A DNA stretch of 64,000 nt from a bacterium BMS3Abin03 (GTDB taxonomy: Bacteria > Bacteroidota > Ignavibacteria > Ignavibacteriales > Ignavibacteriaceae), in contig JAJDNK010000061.1 in the NCBI GenBank assembly GCA_022340715.1, positions 633 through 64,632 on the forward strand. Reading direction: 5' to 3'. A model generated the notes under the pieces. That model saw only the letters and a list, made by a program, of their open reading frames with translations, was not told the origin of the DNA and made no database searches. The position numbers and the translations under genes were made by a program. This document shows positions 16,859 to 54,707 of the stretch, piece after piece; positions within the stretch are counted from its first letter, which is position 1; every line of letters begins with the position of its first letter.

Positions 16859-16930
16859 ATGAGCCAACTGCCGGAATCGAACCGGCGACCTACTCATTAC
16901 GAATGAGTTGCTCTACCAGCTGAGCTAAGT
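16859..16930 (-). repeat. Left island boundary (attL-type): 5'-truncated, non-functional copy of tRNA-Thr
   Basis: 72 nt identical to 22906-22977. Covers tRNA positions 5-73 plus 3 nt of trailer. Acceptor nt 1-4 are replaced, so no acceptor stem can form. Confidence 0.9.
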
Positions 16931-17017: not shown

Positions 17018-18051
17018 ATGTTTTTGTTTAAAAGAGGTAAGTATTATCATTTAGAATACTTTAATGAAAACGGAAATCGTATCCGGAGAATCTCAACACA
17101 AGCAACAAAAAAAAAACTGATGCTATCAAATTTCTAACAGAGTATAAAAAGCAAATCGTAAAGCATAGCAAATCCAAACATATTCTGTTATCAACATTCT
17201 ATAGTAAATATCAAGACTATATAACTACTAATTGTTCTAAAAAATATTTTTCAACTGTCTCCTTAGCATTCAGGCAACTATCTGATTTTATTGGTGATGT
17301 TCCGTTAATAAAACTAACCTATCATCAACTTGACCTGTTTATGAATGCAACCTTTAAGCGGACTCAACACGGCGCCTGGACTAATTACAGAGTGTTAAAA
17401 AGTGCATTCAATAAAGCAGTAAATTGGGGATACATAACTGATAATCCACTTAAAAGAATTCAGCTTCCCAAAATTGCTGTATCGTCGCCCTAATTTATCA
17501 AAGAAAAGGAATTTAATCTGATTGTGAGGAATACTGCTAATTCCGATTTAAAAGATATTTTCATAACAGCATTCAATTCAGGGATGAGATTATCGGAAAT
17601 AATAAACCTGAAATGGTCATCTGTTCATCTTAGTGACCGAACACTTTTAATTCAAAATCATTCTTCATTTAGAACTAAAAATAAGAAACCCAGAATTATT
17701 CCACTGAACAATACCCTATATCATTTGTTGAAGTCCAGAAAGCTAAAAGTTATTGGTATGGAATTAAATGAGTATGTGTTTGCGAAGTATTTTGGTGTTC
17801 CCTATTCAGTCAAATTTGTCAGCAAAGGGTTTAAAAAAATAGTGAGAAAGTTGGATTTAAACAGCAAGTATCATTTCCATTTGTTAAGAGTTGCCTTCGG
17901 TAGTAATTTATTAGCTAACGGAATTCCTATTAGCAATATATCTAAATTGCTTGGTCACTCATCCATAGCTGTGACTGAAAAGCATTACACAAGTCTCTCG
18001 ATGGAAAATCTTTTTAACGCCGTTAAAACATTAGATAGAAATGTAGTTTAA
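17018..18051 (+). pseudogene. Tyrosine recombinase / phage-type integrase, disrupted
   Basis: AAGGAG SD at 17005-17010 and ATG at 17018. That frame ends at TAA 17135 just after an A10 run (17107-17116). The reading continues in the -1 frame (TDAIKFLTEYKKQIV...NYRVLKSAFNKAVNWGYITDNPLKRIQLPK) to an in-frame TAA at 17491. The same frame then continues as track ORF 17524-18051, which has the catalytic R (GMRLSEI), HLLR, LGHSS and Y (EKHYTSL). Confidence 0.85.
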
Positions 18052-18810: not shown

Positions 18811-19044
18811 ATGAAAAGACATACATTCTTAATAATAGGGGGTTTCTGCTACCTTATTCTATTTTTATTCGTTGATTTATTTTTTATTGATAATGCCTAT
18901 TGGAAAGATGCGTCTGGACGTGTTTCAATACTTAGAAAACCAAATATTCTTGTCATTGGTATAATCCTAATTTCACAATCACTAATTGTATTTGTTACAG
19001 CAGTATTCTATGCATTAAAAACAAGGATTAAGAACATTGGGTAG
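18811..19044 (+). CDS. Small 2-TM membrane protein (hypothetical)
   Basis: I prefer the ATG at 18811, preceded by AGGAGG (18798-18803), over the track's TTG at 18787. Hydrophobic helices FLIIGGFCYLILFLFVDLFFI and ILVIGIILISQSLIVFVTAVFYAL. Confidence 0.55.
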   Translation: MKRHTFLIIGGFCYLILFLFVDLFFIDNAYWKDASGRVSILRKPNILVIGIILISQSLIVFVTAVFYALKTRIKNIG

Positions 19045-19285
19045 TGATATTGTTGATAGTTATAATCGTTTAGTGGAGGAAGCAATAGAAAGCAAAAAGG
19101 AATTTGCGATTGAAAAATTAAATGAAGCGTTAAAAATATTTGAAAAATATAAAAGTTATTTCGGTGAAGGTAATCAGAGTTTGGGAGAGCAACTAAAAGA
19201 AATGATTGTGGAGTGGGAAAATGGGAAAACTTGGTTAGAAAATACTAAGGATTGGGGAAAAGAGAATATGAGAATGGTTCCTTAA
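19037..19285 (+). CDS. Hypothetical helical protein; probably the N-terminal part of a frameshifted MORN-like gene
   Basis: 82-aa ORF overlapping the next ORF by 34 nt. Its C-terminus (VEWENGKTWLENTKDWGK) already matches the repeat period of the downstream ORF. Confidence 0.45.
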   Translation: MGSDIVDSYNRLVEEAIESKKEFAIEKLNEALKIFEKYKSYFGEGNQSLGEQLKEMIVEWENGKTWLENTKDWGKENMRMVP

Positions 19286-19578
19286 AAGCTGAATGGATTA
19301 ATAAAGATTATATGAAACGCGGAGATTATATAAAGTATTATAGAAATGGTAATATTGAGATGAGATGTAAATACCTCGATGAAGTAAATAGAGATGGATT
19401 AATGCACAAATATTTTGAAAATGGTAGACTTAAAGAGTTGTGGAGTTATGATAAAGGTAAACGAAAATTTGTAAAAAAGTATTTTGAAAATGGTAATCTG
19501 AAAACAGAGTGGTTATATGATGAATATGGAAACGATATATCCAAAGTATATTATGATAAAAACGGTAGTAGGAAATAA
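19252..19578 (+). CDS. MORN-repeat-variant protein (YwqK-like antitoxin/immunity family)
   Basis: 108 aa with repeated units: YENGSLKAEW, YYRNGNIEMRCKY, YFENGRLKELWSY, YFENGNLKTEWLY, YYDKNGS. The track start is a TTG with no SD. Confidence 0.6.
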   Translation: MGKREYENGSLKAEWINKDYMKRGDYIKYYRNGNIEMRCKYLDEVNRDGLMHKYFENGRLKELWSYDKGKRKFVKKYFENGNLKTEWLYDEYGNDISKVYYDKNGSRK

Positions 19579-20114: not shown

Positions 20115-20409
20115 TCTGAGGATGAAAATATTATCTAAAAAAAGTGAACCCGATAATGATGAATTTGAATGGCCATCTTTTTTATTAGACATTAAATGTT
20201 ATTAAAAAATTATAAACCGATTGAATACTCAAGCTATTATACCCCCTCCCCTATAAACTTAAGCCTCAAGTTTAATGCTAAGTCTTTATAAATAAATGAA
20301 TTAACTATTAAAATATTTCCATTTATTTCTGGTCATAATTGCATCCCAGTAAAAAGGGTTTTACTATTAATCCTTACGATTTAGGGTTAAGTCATTATAA
20401 AACAACGAG

Positions 20410-20509
20410 ATAAGTTCAAAAATTATTATACAATTTACGCCCTCTTTCTGCATGCACCTATATCCCCTCTTTTTAGGGTGTGCGGGACTAATTTTAGTTA
20501 GAAATTTTC
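20410..20509 (-). repeat. Island intergenic repeat, copy R1 (abuts the stop of the STAS gene)
   Basis: Aligns with R3 and R2. Shares ATAAGTTCAAAAA(A)TTATTATACAATTTACG with R3, the CCCT-loop-AGGGTGT hairpin core (20465-20481), and GTTAGAAA at 20497. Confidence 0.8.
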
Positions 20510-20510
20510 A

Positions 20511-20873
20511 TCAATTTTCTGGTTGATTATCCCCCTCAAAACTTTTGATTGCATCTTCCCTTGTATTGTATAAATCAAATAAACTAATAGTATTTGTCGT
20601 TAGAAATATATCTTCTTTAGAATGAATAGGTTTTACAAGTTTCAACTTTTTACCCATATCAGTCATCTTACCCAACGCCCAAATAATTCCTCCAAAGAAA
20701 GTTGAGTCGACGTAGTCGCATTTACTTAAATCAATAATTATATCTGTATGTCCAGCATTAATCTCTTCCTCTATGACTTTCCTAAATTCATAAGCGTCTT
20801 TTATTGTTGAACGAGTTAGGTTAACTGCTATTACATATACGCCGTCAACATATATCTTTTCAAATGCATCCAA
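20511..20873 (-). CDS. STAS-domain protein (anti-sigma-factor antagonist, SpoIIAA-like)
   Basis: 120 aa. IIIDLSKCDYVDSTFFGGIIWAL matches the STAS DLS-x-V-x-x-(I/V)DS(S/T) phosphorylation-loop pattern. Confidence 0.7.
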   Translation of the reverse strand: MDAFEKIYVDGVYVIAVNLTRSTIKDAYEFRKVIEEEINAGHTDIIIDLSKCDYVDSTFFGGIIWALGKMTDMGKKLKLVKPIHSKEDIFLTTNTISLFDLYNTREDAIKSFEGDNQPEN

Positions 20874-20940
20874 AATAGTTTCTTAATTATGATTATTATA
20901 GATACAAATTAAGTCGTCCTCTGGTTAATATCAATCATTT

Positions 20941-21033
20941 AAAAACTATTGTTATACAAATTATGCCTGTTTTCGATGTAGATACCGGCCCTTTGGTTTT
21001 AGGGTGTGGGGTAAAGTTTGGTTGAAAAATTTC
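20941..21033 (-). repeat. Island intergenic repeat, copy R2 (most diverged)
   Basis: GTTATACAAATTATG..., then CCCTTTGGTTTTAGGGTGT (core AGGGTGT at 21001-21007), then GTTGAAAAATTTC at 21021-21033. The order and spacing match R1 and R3. Confidence 0.7.
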
Positions 21034-21036
21034 ATT

Positions 21037-21078
21037 AAAAAAACCCTCCCGACTCTCATTTAAATATAATCGAGAGGG
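21037..21078 (-). terminator. Rho-independent terminator downstream of the lipoprotein gene
   Basis: The minus strand reads CCCTCTCG-ATTATATTTAAAT-GAGAGTCGGGAGGG followed by TTTTTTT (rc of the A7 run at 21037-21043). Confidence 0.55.
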
Positions 21079-21159
21079 AAACATTTAATCTTCAAGCTAT
21101 CCATATAAATTATAGACAGCTTGAAAGCATAGAATTTGGACAGTTAATTTGAGAATTTA

Positions 21160-21792
21160 CTAATTACCCTTAGGAGTTAGCTGTATTGTCCTCTTCAGCA
21201 CCTTAAGTGTTGAGAAATCACCATCATACCATACTCCATGATTAAACGCATTTAGGTTATAATTTTGCCCATCTGAACCCATTACATTTCCAACTACATG
21301 AAGACTATATGAGTTAATATTATTTTCGCCGTTAGCTAGTAAATCATTATCATTATACTGAAATTTAACGTTGCCAGTAGCAATTGGTTCGTTGCTGAAA
21401 AAGCTACATAAATCATTTGGGTAGTCACCAATCTCCCAAACAGATACAGACACATTATTGCCCGTAACCTTTTCGATAATTCTACCTCCATCTTCATTGC
21501 TTGGAGAAACAACATCCTGGACGTTTAAGATATCAGATTCTGCAGCCCCACAAATTGCCCCAGAAAAATCCTGAGCACCAATTCCCACTACTAATCCACT
21601 CTTCGCATCAGACCAAAACACAACGGCAGAACCTTGATACCTGACAACAATACCTGATTCGGCCGGTGAACCCTTAAGCATTGATTTAGTAGATGTAGGA
21701 TTAACATCATTATCAGTGGGTGTTTGCTCATCACAAGAAGTAACGATAAATACGCCAAAGGCTACGAGGGCAATAACAAGAAAATTTTTCAT
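21160..21792 (-). CDS. Hypothetical lipoprotein
   Basis: 210 aa with a signal peptide and lipobox (MKNFLVIALVAFGVFIVTSC). GGAGG SD upstream. I recognise no family. Confidence 0.65.
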   Translation of the reverse strand: MKNFLVIALVAFGVFIVTSCDEQTPTDNDVNPTSTKSMLKGSPAESGIVVRYQGSAVVFWSDAKSGLVVGIGAQDFSGAICGAAESDILNVQDVVSPSNEDGGRIIEKVTGNNVSVSVWEIGDYPNDLCSFFSNEPIATGNVKFQYNDNDLLANGENNINSYSLHVVGNVMGSDGQNYNLNAFNHGVWYDGDFSTLKVLKRTIQLTPKGN

Positions 21793-22002
21793 AGAACCTC
21801 CTATTAAAAATGTTGATAAAATTTTTTGTTAGAAATTAACTCTATGGAGCAAACTTCTAGCAGATTAAAATAAAAACATCTTTCTCGGAAGTCTTGTATT
21901 ATTCCTGCAAATGTTAGGACTTTTCAATCAAACATTAGTGTTTGTAATTAAATATTTATTGCAAGTATGAATTGTTTGTAGTACACGGCAAGATTAAATT
22001 AT

Positions 22003-22103
22003 ATAAGTTCAAAAAATTATTATACAATTTACGATGTCTTTCCGCTCGCACCTATGTCCCCTTGTTTTAAGGGTGTATGGGGGTCAATTTCGTTGAAAAC
22101 TTT
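22003..22103 (-). repeat. Island intergenic repeat, copy R3
   Basis: ATAAGTTCAAAAAATTATTATACAATTTACG..., then CCCTTGTTTTAAGGGTGT (core at 22070-22076), then GTTGAAAAC at 22092-22100. A partial extra GGTTGAAAT lies at 22117-22125. Confidence 0.8.
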
Positions 22104-22154
22104 GGTCATTTTTTAGGTTGAAATCTCAAATCTCTTTCATCTCACCTTCTGTTT

Positions 22155-22388
22155 TTATCCTTGTCCTCCAATGTCAGAATGTTCTGAATTATAATCTTCT
22201 TCATTATATTCTTCTAATAGTTTTTCTGCTTTCTCTCGCCAGATTTTTGCGAACGCATCCAGGAATTTTTCTTTATCTTCCATTCTGATGATAATGTCAT
22301 GAGCTTGTTTACCAATATCATATTCAGTGTGGCTAAAATATTTTTCTTGATATAATTTATCTAAATCTATTCGCATTTTTTTATCCAT
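22155..22388 (-). CDS. Small acidic hypothetical protein
   Basis: 77-aa ORF rich in E/D/K with a helical character. I recognise no family. Confidence 0.45.
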   Translation of the reverse strand: MDKKMRIDLDKLYQEKYFSHTEYDIGKQAHDIIIRMEDKEKFLDAFAKIWREKAEKLLEEYNEEDYNSEHSDIGGQG

Positions 22389-22839
22389 ATTAAAAATCCT
22401 TTGTACTTTTTATTTGATGTTAAACTATGCTCCCATTAAAGCTCAATCCATACTTTTGAGATTTAATTTGAACATTTACTAACTAATTGTTTTAATATAC
22501 AAAAATTGATTAGAATTTTTGTTCGTTTTTTAGGTTAAGATTCTTTTTCAATTTTTTTATCCTATTGTGGTGCTTCATTGAGCCAGATAAGAAACATAGG
22601 GTTAAGCATACAAAAATCTCATCTCTAAATCATTAATAATTAATTACTTACAACGATGTGACAAACTATCTCTTGACATTGCCATTAAAATTGTTTTATT
22701 AAGAGGTAGGATTCTGAAAGATGAGGTAACATATTGAATTTAACTGAGAAAGCCTGAAAGGAAATTAATAGGGACTCATCTCCCTTGAATCCGCCTTTTG
22801 GGCTTTTCTTGTTTATGTTCTTTAAGTAGTGCTAAGAGT

Positions 22840-22905: not shown

Positions 22906-22977
22906 ATGAGCCAACTGCCGGAATCGAACCGGCGACCTACTCATTACGAATGAGTTGCTCTACCAGCTGAGCTAAGT
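22906..22977 (-). repeat. Right island boundary (attR-type), contained in the intact tRNA-Thr
   Basis: 72 nt identical to 16859-16930. Confidence 0.9.
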
Positions 22978-22981
22978 TGGC
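22909..22981 (-). tRNA. tRNA-Thr (anticodon CGU)
   Basis: The reverse complement folds as GCCAACT-TA-GCTC-AGCTGGTA-GAGC-A-ACTCA-TTCGTAA-TGAGT-AGGTC-GCCGG-TTCGATT-CCGGC-AGTTGGC-T. This is 73 nt with all four stems Watson-Crick, the T-loop TTCGATT and anticodon CGT. CCA is not encoded. Confidence 0.93.
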
Positions 22982-48542: not shown

Positions 48543-51500
48543 ATGGGTAAGAACAATACATACAAGTCGTTATTCGAAGAAGCAAACGAATCCCGGTTTA
48601 TTATTGAATTAAAATCTCTTTCATTGATTGACATAAATAGACAAGCAAGAAAGTTACTTGGAATCACCAAATCAAAAACAAAAAAATATTGTCTGCCTGA
48701 TTTTTTTCCCGAGGATAAAAGAAAAGTCTCAGTTACAAGGTTTAATAAAATAAAATGGAGGAAGACGGGAATTCTTGAAGACATTGAAATTCAAAATTTA
48801 AAAGGGGGGGGGGAAAATGTAGAAATAGAAACTGCAAAGATTAAAGTTGAAGATAAGATACTTGTTGAATGTAAAGTTAATGCTCATAATAATAATTCAC
48901 TGGTTATAAAACATAATGAAGTAAAATTTAAAACATTATTTGAATCAGCAAACGATGCAATACTGCTCTTGAACAACGACACATTAATAGATTGCAACGA
49001 AAAAACACTTGAAATTTTCGCCTGTTCACGTAATGAAATCTTAAATCAAAAACTTTATAAATTTTCTCCGCTCAACCAACCTGATGGAAATAATTCTAAA
49101 GAAATATTTCGGGAAAAAATAAAAGCTGCGCTGGATGATTTTCCGCAGTTTTTTGAATGGAGACATAAAAAAGCAGATGGGGCTCTGTTTGATACAGAAG
49201 TAAGTCTTAATCGAATTGTTCTTGAAAACCATGTGATGCTTCAGGCAATTATTCGTGACATAACTGATAAAAAGTTAAAAGAATCAACTATTCGTGAACA
49301 GAATAGAAGAATCAATACTTTGATGAGTAATCTGCCGGGAATGGCATACCGCTGTAAGTTAAACAGAAAATGGACTATGGAATTTGTAAGTGAAGGATGT
49401 CTTTCTCTAACCGGTTATAAACCGGAAGATTTTATTAATGATAATACAATAGCATATAATAACATTATTCATCCTGAAGACCGTGACAGGGTATGGATTG
49501 AAATTAACTACGCTACTGAAAGGAAGAGGCCTTTCACAATTTTATATAGGATATATACTCGTGACGGTTTTGAAAAGTGGTTGTGGGAAAAAGGAATAGG
49601 AATCTTTAATGATTCAGGTGAAATAATTGGATTGGAAGGATTCATATCCGATATAACCGACAGAAAACTATCCGAAGAAAAAATATCGATGCTTGCCCAT
49701 GCTTTGAAGAGCATAAGTGAATGCGTATGGATTATGGATATGAATGAAGTCATCATGTTTGTAAATAATTCATTTTGCAAGACTTATGGTTATGAACAGG
49801 ATGAAATAATCGGTAAAAAGATTTCCGTAATACGTTCACCAAATAATTCCATGCAATTGATAAATAAAGTTCGTTCTTTCACTTTAGAGGATGGCTGGAG
49901 TGGAGAACTATTAGACATTAAAAAATCTGGCCAAGAATTTCCTGTACTACTTTCGACCTCAATTATAAAGGATGACTCTGAGAAATCGATTGCATTAATT
50001 GGTATAACCAATGATATAACTGAAAGAAAAAGAGCTGAAGAGGCATTGAGGCAAAGCGAAGAAAGATTTAAATCTTTAGTTGATAATATGCTTGAACCTG
50101 CAATTATATTAAGCATGGATGGCTCAATTCTTTTTGCCAATAATAGTGCCGCTGACCTTGTAGAAATTCATTCTCCGGTTGAAGCAAGCGGAAAAGATAT
50201 TTTTGAATTTTTACATCCTGATTTCAACCTAAAATTAAAACGTTCTTTTATTAAGGCGAAAAAAAATCCCGACTTATTTTCTGCGGAGTTTAAAATAGTT
50301 ACATCGAAAAACAATGAAAAATGGATTGAAGGTTTAGGCAAAGAAATAATTTTTGACGGGAGGAAAGCAGTTCTCATAACTTTACATGATATTTCAGGAA
50401 GGAAAAAAGCCGAAGAACAATTGAAAGAGGCCAAAGAATATGCAGAAGAAATGAATAAATTAAAATCTGCATTTCTTGCTAATATGAGTCATGAGTTAAG
50501 AACTCCGCTTGTTGGAATACTAGGATATTCTGAAATGTTGCTTGAAAAATTAGAAGACCCGGACCAGGTTGATATGGTTGACAAGATTCTCTTCAGCGGT
50601 AATAGACTCATGGAAACTCTTAACTCTGTGCTCGATCTCTCAAGAATAGAAGCTAACCGAATTGATATATACCTGGAACCAATTAATGTTCCCGCAGTCG
50701 TTAAAAGACATACGGATATGTTTAAACCTACAGCAGAAAAAAGAGGACTTTATCTTCGCAAATTATTTTCTGATGAAAATATAACAGCACTTTTAGATGA
50801 AAGATTTCTCGGACAAATAATAAATAACCTTGTAAGCAACTCAATAAAATTTACTAAGAAGGGTGGAATTACCGTACGAGTTGATACTATCCAGGATAAA
50901 ATGGAGAAACTTGTACAGATATCTGTTTCTGATACAGGAATTGGAATACCACAAAAAAACCTGGATACAATCTTTGAAGAATTCAGACAGGTAAGTGAGG
51001 GTATCAACCGACACTTCGAAGGAACAGGTTTAGGTTTAACAATCACAAAAAGGTTTGTAAAACTAATGGAGGGAGAAATTAGTGTAAACAGTAAAGTAGG
51101 CACAGGATCCGAATTCGTGGTCACATTTGCAGCACTTGATGAATCAACAGACAAAATGAAACCGAAAGAAGAAGATATTAGCCGTCCTTTAGCCTCTCAG
51201 AGCGATTTTCTACAATTACCAGCAGCACGGCAAGTACTATTTGTCGAAGATGATCAATCAAGCAAAGATGTTACGCAATTATTTTTAGAAGGAATTTGTG
51301 ATTTAACATTTGCTAAAACAGGTGAAGAAGCCCTGGAAATAGTAAAACAAAAAAAATTTGATGCAATTTTAATGGATATTAACCTTGGTTCCGGAATCAG
51401 CGGAGTTGAAACAACTAAGCTTATCAGGAAAATGAAAGAGTATAAAAACATTCCTATTGTAGCAATAACAGCTTTTGCTATGCAGGGAGATAAAGACAAA

Positions 51501-51827: not shown

Positions 51828-54707
51828 ATGAAACTCTTTAATCCTTCGAAATCTGAAACACAAGTACTCGAAGAAAAAAATATGCATAATTGGGACAACA
51901 TTAGCGAATTGGAATATACAATTCAGCTTTCCGCAAGATCATTTGAATGGCTTTCTAATAATCTGGGAGTTTGTTTTTTCAAAACCAGAATTGACGGGAC
52001 TCTCCTATATGCAAATGAGTATGCCGCCAGGACATTTGAATTCAAATCCAGGGACGGTTTTTATAACAAAAGCACTATTTCCTTCTATAAGAATAAGACA
52101 GACAGACAGAAGTTCATTGAGTTACTAAAAGAGAACTCTGAAATACAATGCTTTGAAACAGAGTTCATAACGAAATCCGGTAAAGTAAGAGCTATGCAGG
52201 TTAGTGCTATTCTGAATGGTGATATTATAACAGGTATGGCTGTCGATAAAACTGACAATAAAATTGCCAAGGATAGAATTGAAGATTCGTTATCGCTTTT
52301 ACGTTCAACTTTAGACTCTACTGCGGATGGTATATTGGTAGTCGACAAAGGTGGAATGGTAAAAAACTTTAATCAGAATTTTATTAATATGTGGAGAATC
52401 CCGTTATCTATTACTGAAACACGGGATGATGAGAAATTACTAAGGTTTGTTTTAGATCAGCTAAAAAATCCCGAAGAATTTCTTAAAAAAGTTAAGCACC
52501 TGTATGCAAATGCGGAAAAAGAAAGTTTTGATGTCCTTGAATTTAAGGATGGAAGAGTTTTTGAGCGTTATTCATGTCCTCAAAGAATCGAAGATAAAAT
52601 CATTGGGAGAGTGTGGAGTTTTAGAGATGTAACAGAACAAAAAGCTATAAAAAGAGAACTTATTGACAATGTATTGAAATATAAAACTCTCTTTGAAACT
52701 GCAAATGATGCAATCTTCTTAATGGATGGAGAGAAATTTATAGATTGTAATACAAAAACCCTCGAAATGTTTGGCTGTAAACGGGGAGAAATTATAAACC
52801 ATACTCCTTTTAAATTTTCTCCGCTGAAACAACCTGACGAAAACAATTCAGCAGAAAAAGGAGCCGAGTATATTAAAAAAGCCATTGAAGGTGAACCGCA
52901 ATTCTTTGAATGGAAACATTGCAGATTAGATGGAACCTTATTCGACGCCGAAGTCAGTCTAAATAGATTTGAACTTCACGGAGAAGTATTGATACAGGCT
53001 ATAGTAAGGGATATTTCCGATAGAAAACGTTACGACTTTCTGCGCGAAGCAGTATATAAAATTTCTCAGGCTGCAAACTCTTCCAGAGATTTAAATCAGC
53101 TTTATTCTAAAATTCACAAAATTATTAGTGGATTTATTAATGCAAAAAATTTCTATATCGCTTTATACAACAAGGAAGAAAACTTATTAAGTTTTCCTTA
53201 TTTCGTGGATAAATATGATGAAGCTCCTTCTCCCAAAAAACCAGGTAAAGGATTAACTGAGTACGTTATTCGATCAGAGGAACCTGTTCTGGTAAATCCT
53301 GAAGTATTCGAGACACTTGTAGAAGAAGGTGAAGTTGAAAGAATTCTAACTGATTCAATAGACTGGCTTGGTGTGCCTTTAAAAGTCAGAGGTGAAACAA
53401 TCGGTGCTTTGGTTGTTCAAACCTATACTGAAAACGAACGATACACTGAAACAGATAAAGAATTTTTGAGTTTTGTTTCAGATCAAACTGCAATGGCAAT
53501 TGCACGCGCCAGATATGATGAAGAGCTCATTGAGGCAAAAAACAAAGCCGAGGAAATGAATCGTTTAAAAACGAATTTTCTTGCTAATATGAGTCATGAA
53601 CTTAGAACGCCGATGGTTGGTATAATGGGCTACACAGAAATATTAAAAAGAGAAATTACGAACCCGGAACTTAAGGAAATGTCATCCGAAATTTATGACA
53701 GTGCAAACAGGCTATTAGGTACATTAAACCTGATTCTCGATCTTTCAAAGATTGAAGCTGATAAATCTGAGATACATAGAGAAATAATTAATGTTGGAGA
53801 CGTAACGGTAAGCCAGATTAAAACATTTGAAGAGCTGGCAAAAAAGAAAAACTTATATATCAGAACTGTTATCGCAGATAAAAATATTTATTCCTTGTTG
53901 GATGAACGAATATTCAGGCAGATTGTTAACAACCTTATAAGTAATGCTATCAAATTCACTCAAAAAGGCGGCATTACAGTTGAAATTGACAAAAAAATAG
54001 TAAGCAACACTGAAAACGTAATACTAAAAGTAACTGATACTGGTATCGGCATTCCGGAAAACAGTCTCGATCTGATTTTTGAAGAATTCAGACAGGTTAG
54101 TGAAGGCTTTGATCGTGGTTTTGAAGGTAGTGGTTTAGGACTTAGTATTACTAAAAAATTTATCTCTCTTATGAATGGAAAAATTTCTGTTGAAAGCAAA
54201 GTAGGTAACGGTTCGGTATTTACTATTTGTTTCCCGGGAGATGGAAAAAATGAAATGTCAGATAAACCGACAACACTTTCAAATAAGGATGAAAATAATT
54301 TGGAAGAGCAAGAAACAAAAAAATCTAAAGATCTACCAGATGTTTTATTAGTAGAAGACGATTACTCAAATGCAGGAGTGATTGAATATTTACTTGAAGG
54401 AATTTGCAACCTGGAAACAGTAATAAGTGGTGAAGAAGCAATCGAGAAAGCTGCAAATAAACAGTATAATGCAATACTAATGGATATTGCTCTCGGCAGA
54501 GGTATGAGTGGACTTGAAGCTGCTAAAAGAATAAGAAAAATAGATAGATACAAAGATTTACCGATAGTTGCAGTTACTGCACTGGCAATGAAAGGTCAGA
54601 GAGAATTATTTCTTTCGGAAGGTTGTTCACATTATATTTCAAAACCGTTTGACAAAAATTCTTTTTTGAATTTAGTCACAAGCATTCTACCTAAAAAAAA
54701 CAGCTAA
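51828..54707 (+). CDS. Cytoplasmic hybrid sensor histidine kinase (PAS x3, GAF, HisKA, HATPase_c, REC); paralog of the upstream kinase
   Basis: 959 aa with the H-box [13 protein letters not shown], the G-box [14 protein letters not shown], receiver LLVEDD...AILMDIALG...SKP, and a GAF-like block ([19 protein letters not shown]). Confidence 0.9.

Follow-up and report, generated by a model that had tools for sequence, protein, structure and literature searches.

A tRNA-Thr island with three copies of a short element

The DNA analysed here is a stretch of 64,000 nt (the window) from bacterium BMS3Abin03, a member of the Ignavibacteriaceae (GenBank assembly GCA_022340715.1, contig JAJDNK010000061.1, positions 633 to 64,632). 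Three homologous non-coding elements, R1, R2 and R3, lie on its minus strand around the gene of a STAS-domain protein. Judged from their sequence, they are best read as copies of a lineage-specific conserved non-coding element of about 105–120 nt, named here the STAS trailer, whose native site is directly after the STAS stop codon.

The elements sit in an island some 6 kb long, at whose two ends 72 nt of tRNA-Thr sequence are repeated exactly and in direct orientation (16859–16930 and 22906–22977). An intact tRNA-Thr(CGT) gene (22908–22981, minus strand) forms the proximal boundary and the exact duplicate of its 3′ part (16859–16930, minus strand) the distal one. Beside the distal repeat, in the region 17020–18051, a tyrosine integrase pseudogene (Phage_integrase; 17065–18051, plus strand) was found with an in-frame stop at 17491–17493 and an N-terminal frame break near a run of ten A residues; the same defects were present in all metagenomic copies examined. 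Based on the tRNA-Thr direct repeat and the integrase pseudogene, the segment with R1–R3 is taken to be a decayed tRNA-integrated island.

Three minus-strand genes accompany the elements. An acidic open reading frame (ORF) of 77 aa (22155–22388) lies upstream of R3, and a lipoprotein ORFan of 210 aa (21160–21792) between R3 and R2. A predicted intrinsic terminator of the lipoprotein gene, a hairpin followed by T7, was read from the sequence directly 5′ of R2 (21037–21079, minus strand). The third gene (20511–20873, minus strand) codes for a STAS-domain protein of 120 aa (PF01740, E 6e-5), and it is with this gene that the R family is linked. The protein has 156 homologues with identities of 57–100%, one of which (66%) is from an Ignavibacterium sp. 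genome. In the conserved region 5′ of the STAS gene (20874–20945, minus strand) a putative promoter of the layout TTG-N19-TTAATTTG is located at 20934–20905, with the −33 TTG at 20934–20932 and the −7 element TTAATTTG at 20912–20905. Its counterpart in homologous loci (designated by L numbers) is a perfect TAAGTTTG in L027 and L028, or TATGTTTG in L034 and L055. The promoter is presumably of the Bacteroidetes type, a class assigned from general knowledge of the TTTG / TAnnTTTG consensus and not from experiments in this phylum.

R1 (20395–20516), R2 (20921–21040) and R3 (21988–22110) are co-oriented, on the same strand as the acidic, lipoprotein and STAS genes. R1 is the canonical copy; R2 and R3 are solo copies, of which R3 is the closest relative of R1. 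Scores of 64.2 bits (E 1e-18), 55.7 bits (E 6e-16) and 73.0 bits (E 2.5e-21), respectively, were obtained against the family hidden Markov model (HMM), built on an alignment of 12 copies with these three among them. Upon blastn comparison against the window, R1 and R3 were 78% identical across 119 nt (20410–20526 vs 22003–22121, E about 2e-21), R2 and R1 69% across 95 nt (E 4e-4) and R2 and R3 79% across 47 nt (E 1e-4). R2 is more diverged, yet it can be aligned with R1 and R3 along its whole length. An earlier note on this DNA, made by reading the letters, had described three homologous elements on the gene strand at these positions, and blastn, end-to-end alignment and HMM scores bear this out; the homology is about 15–20 nt longer at both ends than first noted, reaching the STAS stop-codon region at the 5′ end (gene strand) and a tail at the 3′ end. 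The near-identical block common to R1 and R3 is an exact match of 30–31 nt, and the CCCT/AGGG hairpin, the T-YYY-AAC start and the TTTGAAC or TTTAAAT end are present in R1–R3 as had been read. No fourth copy was found in the 64-kb window with a profile of the three copies (nhmmer, next match E 0.49). A partial copy at 22503–22541 was considered and rejected as not significant.

R1 starts with the double stop TGATGA of the STAS gene, after which four boxes follow, A (TTTCTAAC), B (CCCGCACACCC), C (GCAGAAAG) and D (TTGTATAAT), with a short tail 3′ of TTGTATAAT. At its 5′ end R2 directly follows the T-run in the terminator of the lipoprotein gene, and at its 3′ end the tail adjoins the −33 TTG of the STAS promoter. 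The proposal that each element begins close to a stop codon is correct for R1, at the STAS stop, but not for R2, which is set apart from the lipoprotein stop codon by that terminator. R1, R2 and R3 match 22, 21 and 23 of the 26 columns conserved in the family.

The R family and its link to STAS genes

Copies of R were sought in contigs reached through STAS homologues, about 175 kb of distinct Ignavibacteria DNA, and the family was detectable only by this route; exact-pattern scans of genome and metagenome contigs with the window version of R gave chance matches or the same island only. The three-copy window profile found a match right after the STAS stop codon in two loci, L027 of Ignavibacterium sp. 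CP070637.1 (E 3e-8) and L024 (E 5e-8). The latter locus is syntenic with the window; its gene order is HMA-ATPase, AraC, HU, TPR/zinc-ribbon protein, tRNA-Thr, small gene, STAS. With a core profile without STAS coding sequence, post-STAS copies outside the training set were found in L042 (E 1e-13), L037 (E 4e-11) and L039 (E 2e-8), as were solo copies outside the training set in L037 (E 4e-9) and L042. L034 and L028 contain further copies and L055 adds three.

The census comprises 17 copies in the 175 kb, all of them at most about 2.5 kb from a STAS gene and 16 on the STAS strand. No R unlinked to STAS was found in the 64-kb window or in the flanks of 17–20 kb of L028, L034 and L037; for the other loci the flanks measured 2–11 kb. 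The linkage rests on sequence picked via STAS homologues and is to be read with this ascertainment bias. Of the 12 distinct STAS loci of Ignavibacteria, 10 have R at the STAS stop codon: nine carry a full or nearly full copy and one, L051–53, a 5′ half with boxes A and B only. R was lost from L020. The STAS genes carrying R code for proteins of 113–120 aa that are 57–81% identical, and R starts 0–5 nt after their stop codon, with no terminator between. In L042, R follows tandem STAS genes, and L027 has two adjacent STAS genes.

On the gene strand, the family consists of the stop-codon context GTTGAYSAAAA, box A TTTCTAAC, box B ACCCCAYACACCC, a G-rich stretch, box C GCGGAAAG, box D CATAnATTnTAnAACAAnTTTTT and the tail AAAWCCRWTAnTTGC. 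Boxes A–D in this order, the STAS stop-codon context and the STAS strand, by which a STAS trailer is recognised, were found in R1, R2 and R3 alike. Further copies do occur in relatives 3′ of a single small ORF, and this ORF is STAS. R is tied to this one gene family and not to ‘any cassette’. As the earlier note had supposed, no described family matches, with none in Rfam or in plasmid or phage collections. R makes up a family not described before, within a well-known general class, that of the lineage-specific, gene-linked conserved non-coding element.

In five of the nine loci scanned for RNA genes, the STAS–R module lies 0.6–4.7 kb downstream of a tRNA or tmRNA gene (window 22908–22981; L024 3205–3278; L034 9306–9366, a partial tRNA; L042 2503–2576; L039 980–1341, a tmRNA). 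The tRNA and the module are co-oriented in the window and in L024. This position in five of nine loci suggests that STAS–R modules ride in tRNA- or tmRNA-linked islands. No STAS relatives were found in viral contigs, and a literature search on Ignavibacterium and anti-sigma antagonist gave nothing useful.

Upstream of R3, a stretch of about 50 nt (22105–22153, minus strand) resembles by local alignment the end of a STAS gene (EDAIKSFE...QPEN*), a tail that is also seen in STAS homologues. The alignment score was 38, against 23.3 ± 4.4 for shuffled sequences (z about 3.3). In the syntenic L024, a STAS gene sits exactly where this stretch lies, after the tRNA and the small gene. The STAS-tail-like stretch and the STAS gene at the matching place in L024 make it suggestive that R3 is the trailer of a lost STAS copy. 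The support for this remnant is modest, as the largest of 300 shuffles scored 44 and this counts against it. STAS–R modules were probably duplicated locally within the decayed tRNA-Thr island, and two of them would later have lost STAS or exchanged it for ORFan genes. R1 would then be the intact module, R3 would retain about 50 nt of the STAS-like tail and R2 would retain the stop-codon context only. Duplicated STAS–R modules with STAS lost or replaced are the best reading of what looks like a cassette array.

Cassette arrays and dispersed repeats as alternatives

The three elements had been compared in the earlier note to an integron cassette array of the CALIN type (cluster of attC sites lacking integron integrase), and the likeness is easily seen: there is one R for each small, mostly ORFan gene, the copies are co-oriented and about 100 nt long, they carry AAC-containing end boxes and they lie in an island. 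These end boxes are direct repeats and not inverted (A, TTCTAAC; D, TCTAnAAC; about 75 bp apart), and the proposed resemblance to the R″/R′ boxes of attC is lost with this. No RYYYAAC...GTTRRRY pair coincided with R1–R3 in a regular-expression scan of 20300–22250 on both strands. Single-stranded DNA folds of R gave −4.6 to −6.7 kcal/mol on both strands, no better than shuffles (z +0.2 to +1.0), and no long hairpin; the imperfect palindrome and extrahelical-base architecture of attC sites is missing. No integron integrase (IntI) is present, the sole recombinase nearby being the decayed tyrosine integrase of the tRNA island, and no integrase annotation was found in the fetched flanks (partial, 0–10 kb per side) of other R-bearing loci. 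In addition, R is linked to STAS across genera, unlike attC sites in CALIN arrays.

The movement of genes together with R was assessed in metagenome assemblies, from which the island was recovered in 23 contigs via STAS, 24 via the acidic ORF and two more via a DNA pattern. The order acidic–lipoprotein–STAS was the same in every contig covering more than one of these genes, and no gain or loss of a gene-plus-R unit was seen among the roughly 60 metagenomic contigs with this island. The variation of ORF and repeat between strains that would mark cassettes was not observed, and cassette turnover is absent. The sole large polymorphism is an allele replacement in the lipoprotein gene. Two alleles, with about 70% DNA identity and 58% aa identity, occur in nature in islands from different samples; the tract extends from just 3′ of the signal-peptide coding region to the 5′ edge of R2 (window 21037–21735), and outside it identity exceeds 99.5%. 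Metagenomic contigs that break at about 21028–21031 and near 21868 coincide with this allele bubble. The swap looks like a recombinational replacement of a surface-protein domain.

A recombination site bounding mobile gene cassettes, whether attC-like or of a new non-integron system in which gene-plus-R units move, is a very unlikely identity for R. The arrangement of genes between direct R copies would agree with it, in the window, in L024 (R-DUF8292-R), in L037 (R, genes for an outer-membrane protein (OMP) and a beta-lactamase, R) and in L042, as would the sharp 5′ edge of three solo copies directly after a terminator, the frequent position of STAS–R loci just downstream of tRNA or tmRNA genes and the 3′ breakpoint of the lipoprotein swap at the 5′ edge of R2. 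The other breakpoint of the swap lies within the signal-peptide coding region, as in ordinary homologous recombination, and gene order is identical in contigs from many samples. Inverted core sites, a palindrome, an IntI and a recombinase in the fetched flanks are all missing, the local integrase is a tRNA-island pseudogene, and the viral, plasmid and phage collections gave no matches. A related proposal, to which still less probability is given, is that a gene-array system other than an integron operates in tRNA- or tmRNA-linked Ignavibacteria islands, with R as its boundary and homology module; new secreted-protein genes, each accompanied by its terminator, would be taken up or exchanged at R copies seeded by a STAS–R module. 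It would account for the sharp junctions between terminator and R, the R-gene-R units and the lipoprotein swap ending at R2.

Dispersed repeat families were the other comparison. Like repetitive extragenic palindromic (REP) sequences, bacterial interspersed mosaic elements (BIME) and miniature inverted-repeat transposable elements (MITE), R is short, repeated, intergenic and located at gene 3′ ends. Unlike them, it is not palindromic, lacks terminal inverted repeats (by alignments and folds) and target-site duplications, has a low copy number and is confined to STAS neighbourhoods. Apart from the STAS tail, the copies have unrelated flanks. The many dispersed palindromic copies typical of REP/BIME contrast with three copies in 64 kb, all within 1.7 kb, and all 17 copies in the 175 kb lie near STAS. 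With the fold, core-site, integrase, Rfam, plasmid/phage and viral-contig tests all negative, attC/CALIN, REP/BIME and MITE are unsupported. R is real, conserved and unannotated, and the cassette interpretation does not hold. We consider it highly probable that R is a conserved STAS-linked element, present here as an array of duplicated modules, and not an attC site, REP or MITE.

Two further observations were made in the window. The MORN-repeat region at 19037–19578, in the island, is one ORF of 180 aa in some metagenomic copies and two (82 + 108 aa) in the window and others, which points to a strain-variable frameshift. A direct repeat pair of 128 nt with 72% identity (50412–50539 and 53517–53644, about 3.1 kb apart) is unrelated to R.

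Conservation and possible mode of action

R can be aligned between loci whose STAS proteins are just 57–75% identical to that of the window, a distance at which neutral intergenic DNA of 31% G+C would be unalignable. Mismatches between R2 and R1 or R3 amount to 16–20% at the 26 family-conserved columns vs 45–48% elsewhere (Fisher p 0.03 and 0.008), and the solo copies of L037, L042 and L055 retain all boxes. These three observations argue for purifying selection on R, solo copies without STAS included. The opposite view, that R1–R3 are functionless debris of a local duplication evolving neutrally, would suit the recent look of R1 and R3 (78–84% identical, with the exact 31-nt block) and the decay of the island with its integrase pseudogene. 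It is largely refuted by the conservation of homologues beside STAS genes across the family, by the R2 changes that avoid conserved columns and by the intact boxes of the solo copies, and we regard it as the least probable of all readings considered.

The conservation is best explained by selection on the primary sequence, boxes A–D and tail, and not on a fold. Rfam gave no match to R in the window even at E ≤ 10, and only tRNA and tmRNA in seven related loci (cmscan). The CCCT/AGGG stem, described in the earlier note as a kept feature, is out of register in the wider family: 52% of cells are paired, which is below the shuffled mean and some slid controls. Pairing over a long range, between the G-rich region and the tail, was discarded, being suggestive in just a few copies and without alifold support. 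A coding function was rejected as well: the copies differ by 1-nt indels, every frame of R3 contains stops, no conserved C-terminal extension is seen in longer STAS homologues and a frame test gave no consistent anchor.

Signals for transcription were sought inside R. There is no intrinsic terminator, no sigma-70-type site (TTGACA-N16-18-TATAAT) and, in 15 copies and on either strand, no strict Bacteroidetes-type site (TTG-N19-21-TAnnTTTG). The TATAAT of R1 and R3 is not conserved in the family. An opposite-strand promoter at a TAnAAT-like hexamer in box D is a minor possibility; it has no −35 and no extended −10, and the scan did not detect it. Motifs of sigma-54, extracytoplasmic function (ECF) sigma factors, sigma-B and sigma-28 were set aside for misfitting spacing after comparison by eye.

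As for what R does, the overall explanation given preference, by a little better than even chances, is that of a STAS trailer in duplicated modules with a role on the gene-strand transcript. R would be carried on this transcript at the junction between transcription units, as the 3′ trailer of the STAS mRNA and, for the solo copies, as a leader or a short independent RNA. It may work as an RNA signal recognised by its sequence, with an effect on STAS and/or the following gene; the C-rich CCCCAYACACCC box could, for example, serve for binding, processing or base-pairing. Several features are in line with this. No terminator separates R from the STAS stop codon 0–5 nt before it; a hairpin with a T-run is found 3′ of R in L034 (12-bp stem, T8), L028 and L042; R is kept next to a convergent gene, as in R1 and L027; its orientation is nearly always that of the flanking genes; and some 30 nt upstream of the solo copies of L037 and L055 lies a promoter-like block (TTGAGA-N15-TAKAAT) with 98% identity between the two. 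This 55-nt block, GTTCTTTCAGAAATCGTTAGTTGAGACGGTGATTTWTTGCTTAKAATTGAA (L037 12600–12660 and L055 3060–3120, in unrelated metagenome contigs), is far better conserved than R itself.

A number of results speak against a role as RNA or against the trailer model as a whole. No consensus structure emerged: RNAalifold predicted 0 pairs for both strands with 12 copies and, with 15 copies, no more than a 4-bp hairpin of −2.1 kcal/mol. Single-sequence folds were no better than shuffles. The solo copies R2, L024 5034–5132 and L042 7053–7153 start directly after the T-run of an intrinsic terminator, and their transcription would consequently need readthrough or an unrecognised promoter. One copy among the 17, in L055, is inverted. 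Each of the six forward-oriented solo copies has a co-oriented gene 43–280 nt downstream, and in L024 a duplicated unit consisting of the 3′ half of R and about 150 nt of leader precedes two unrelated genes. The co-oriented downstream genes and the L024 duplication fit upstream regulatory DNA equally well.

R would, according to that second possibility, be an operator, or a platform like an upstream activating sequence (UAS), serving the promoter of the gene that comes next; boxes A and D, the direct repeats, would be bound by a factor that controls a core promoter just downstream. A co-oriented next gene is found not only for the six forward solo copies but also for seven of nine scored STAS-linked copies. 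The R2 tail adjoins the −33 TTG of the conserved STAS promoter, and 35–50 nt after R a T-rich block with CTTGAC...CAATTTG is present in L024, L037, L042 and L055, an arrangement which we take, from knowledge of the consensus, to resemble the Bacteroidetes −33/−7. The repeated L024 unit before unrelated genes, the solo copies after terminators, the conserved columns, which are mostly A/T, and the lack of an RNA fold point the same way. A regulator site for the downstream gene, however, has no need to start at the STAS stop codon, where R always starts, nor to be fully conserved where the next gene is convergent, as in R1 and L027. Moreover, in L034 a strong terminator stands between R and the gene after it, no gene for a DNA-binding protein is linked with any consistency, and other STAS promoters work without an upstream R. 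Upstream regulatory DNA is judged less likely than not, but is a close rival. An RNA-level mechanism is itself put forward tentatively, and the RNA trailer or leader is placed slightly ahead of the DNA operator.

By its position, R most resembles a conserved 3′-untranslated-region (3′-UTR) element or a 3′-UTR-derived small RNA (sRNA) with stand-alone paralogues; examples are CpxQ, DapZ and MicL of enterobacteria and the C-rich RsaE/RoxS-type sRNAs of Firmicutes. Like these, it is non-coding, starts at a stop codon and is followed by a terminator in some loci, it has stand-alone copies with their own promoter-like block, and its C-rich box is a plausible pairing motif. It differs in having no conserved terminator or stem-loops, in occurring in a different phylum without sequence similarity or Rfam match, and in being known from sequence alone. 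The other close analogue would be a duplicated regulatory region. As in ‘putative mobile promoters’, R modules are homologous intergenic sequences before non-homologous genes, and copies within a genome are more alike than those between genomes (L024, L037 and the window); unlike these, R has no recognisable sigma-70 or Bacteroidetes core promoter, and its anchor is the 3′ end of a single gene family.

Related loci contain another conserved non-coding motif, some 90 nt long, directly 5′ of genes for secreted proteins, proteins with a type IX secretion system (T9SS) tail and outer-membrane proteins; none of its copies is in the window. It is located at L024 5206–5296, L037 10557–10644, L034 12869–12957, 18322–18419 and 2279–2364, L027 5745–5822 and L055 3321–3402. 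Its core reads TCTACACCTYnGAGGArGGTTGTGkAr...GATTAyAGTAyATTC...TTTCCCCTkGAGGTTTAG, with a CTACAC/GTGTAG hairpin, and it matched no Rfam family at gathering score. This motif is a candidate for a new 5′-leader RNA motif of Ignavibacteria.

For scans of other genomes, the window is a caution that duplication and decay of a gene-plus-trailer module can give rise to one repeat per small ORF in an island, with no cassette machinery involved. The analysis has yielded a defined family of 17 copies with boxes A–D, usable as a covariance or HMM model. The STAS gene tied to R is a widespread orphan, and this little-studied phylum has, to our knowledge, no described regulatory RNA or operator. If R is an RNA trailer, an sRNA or an operator, it would provide a first handle on how Ignavibacteria control the adjacent variable genes for secreted, T9SS-type and lipoprotein products.

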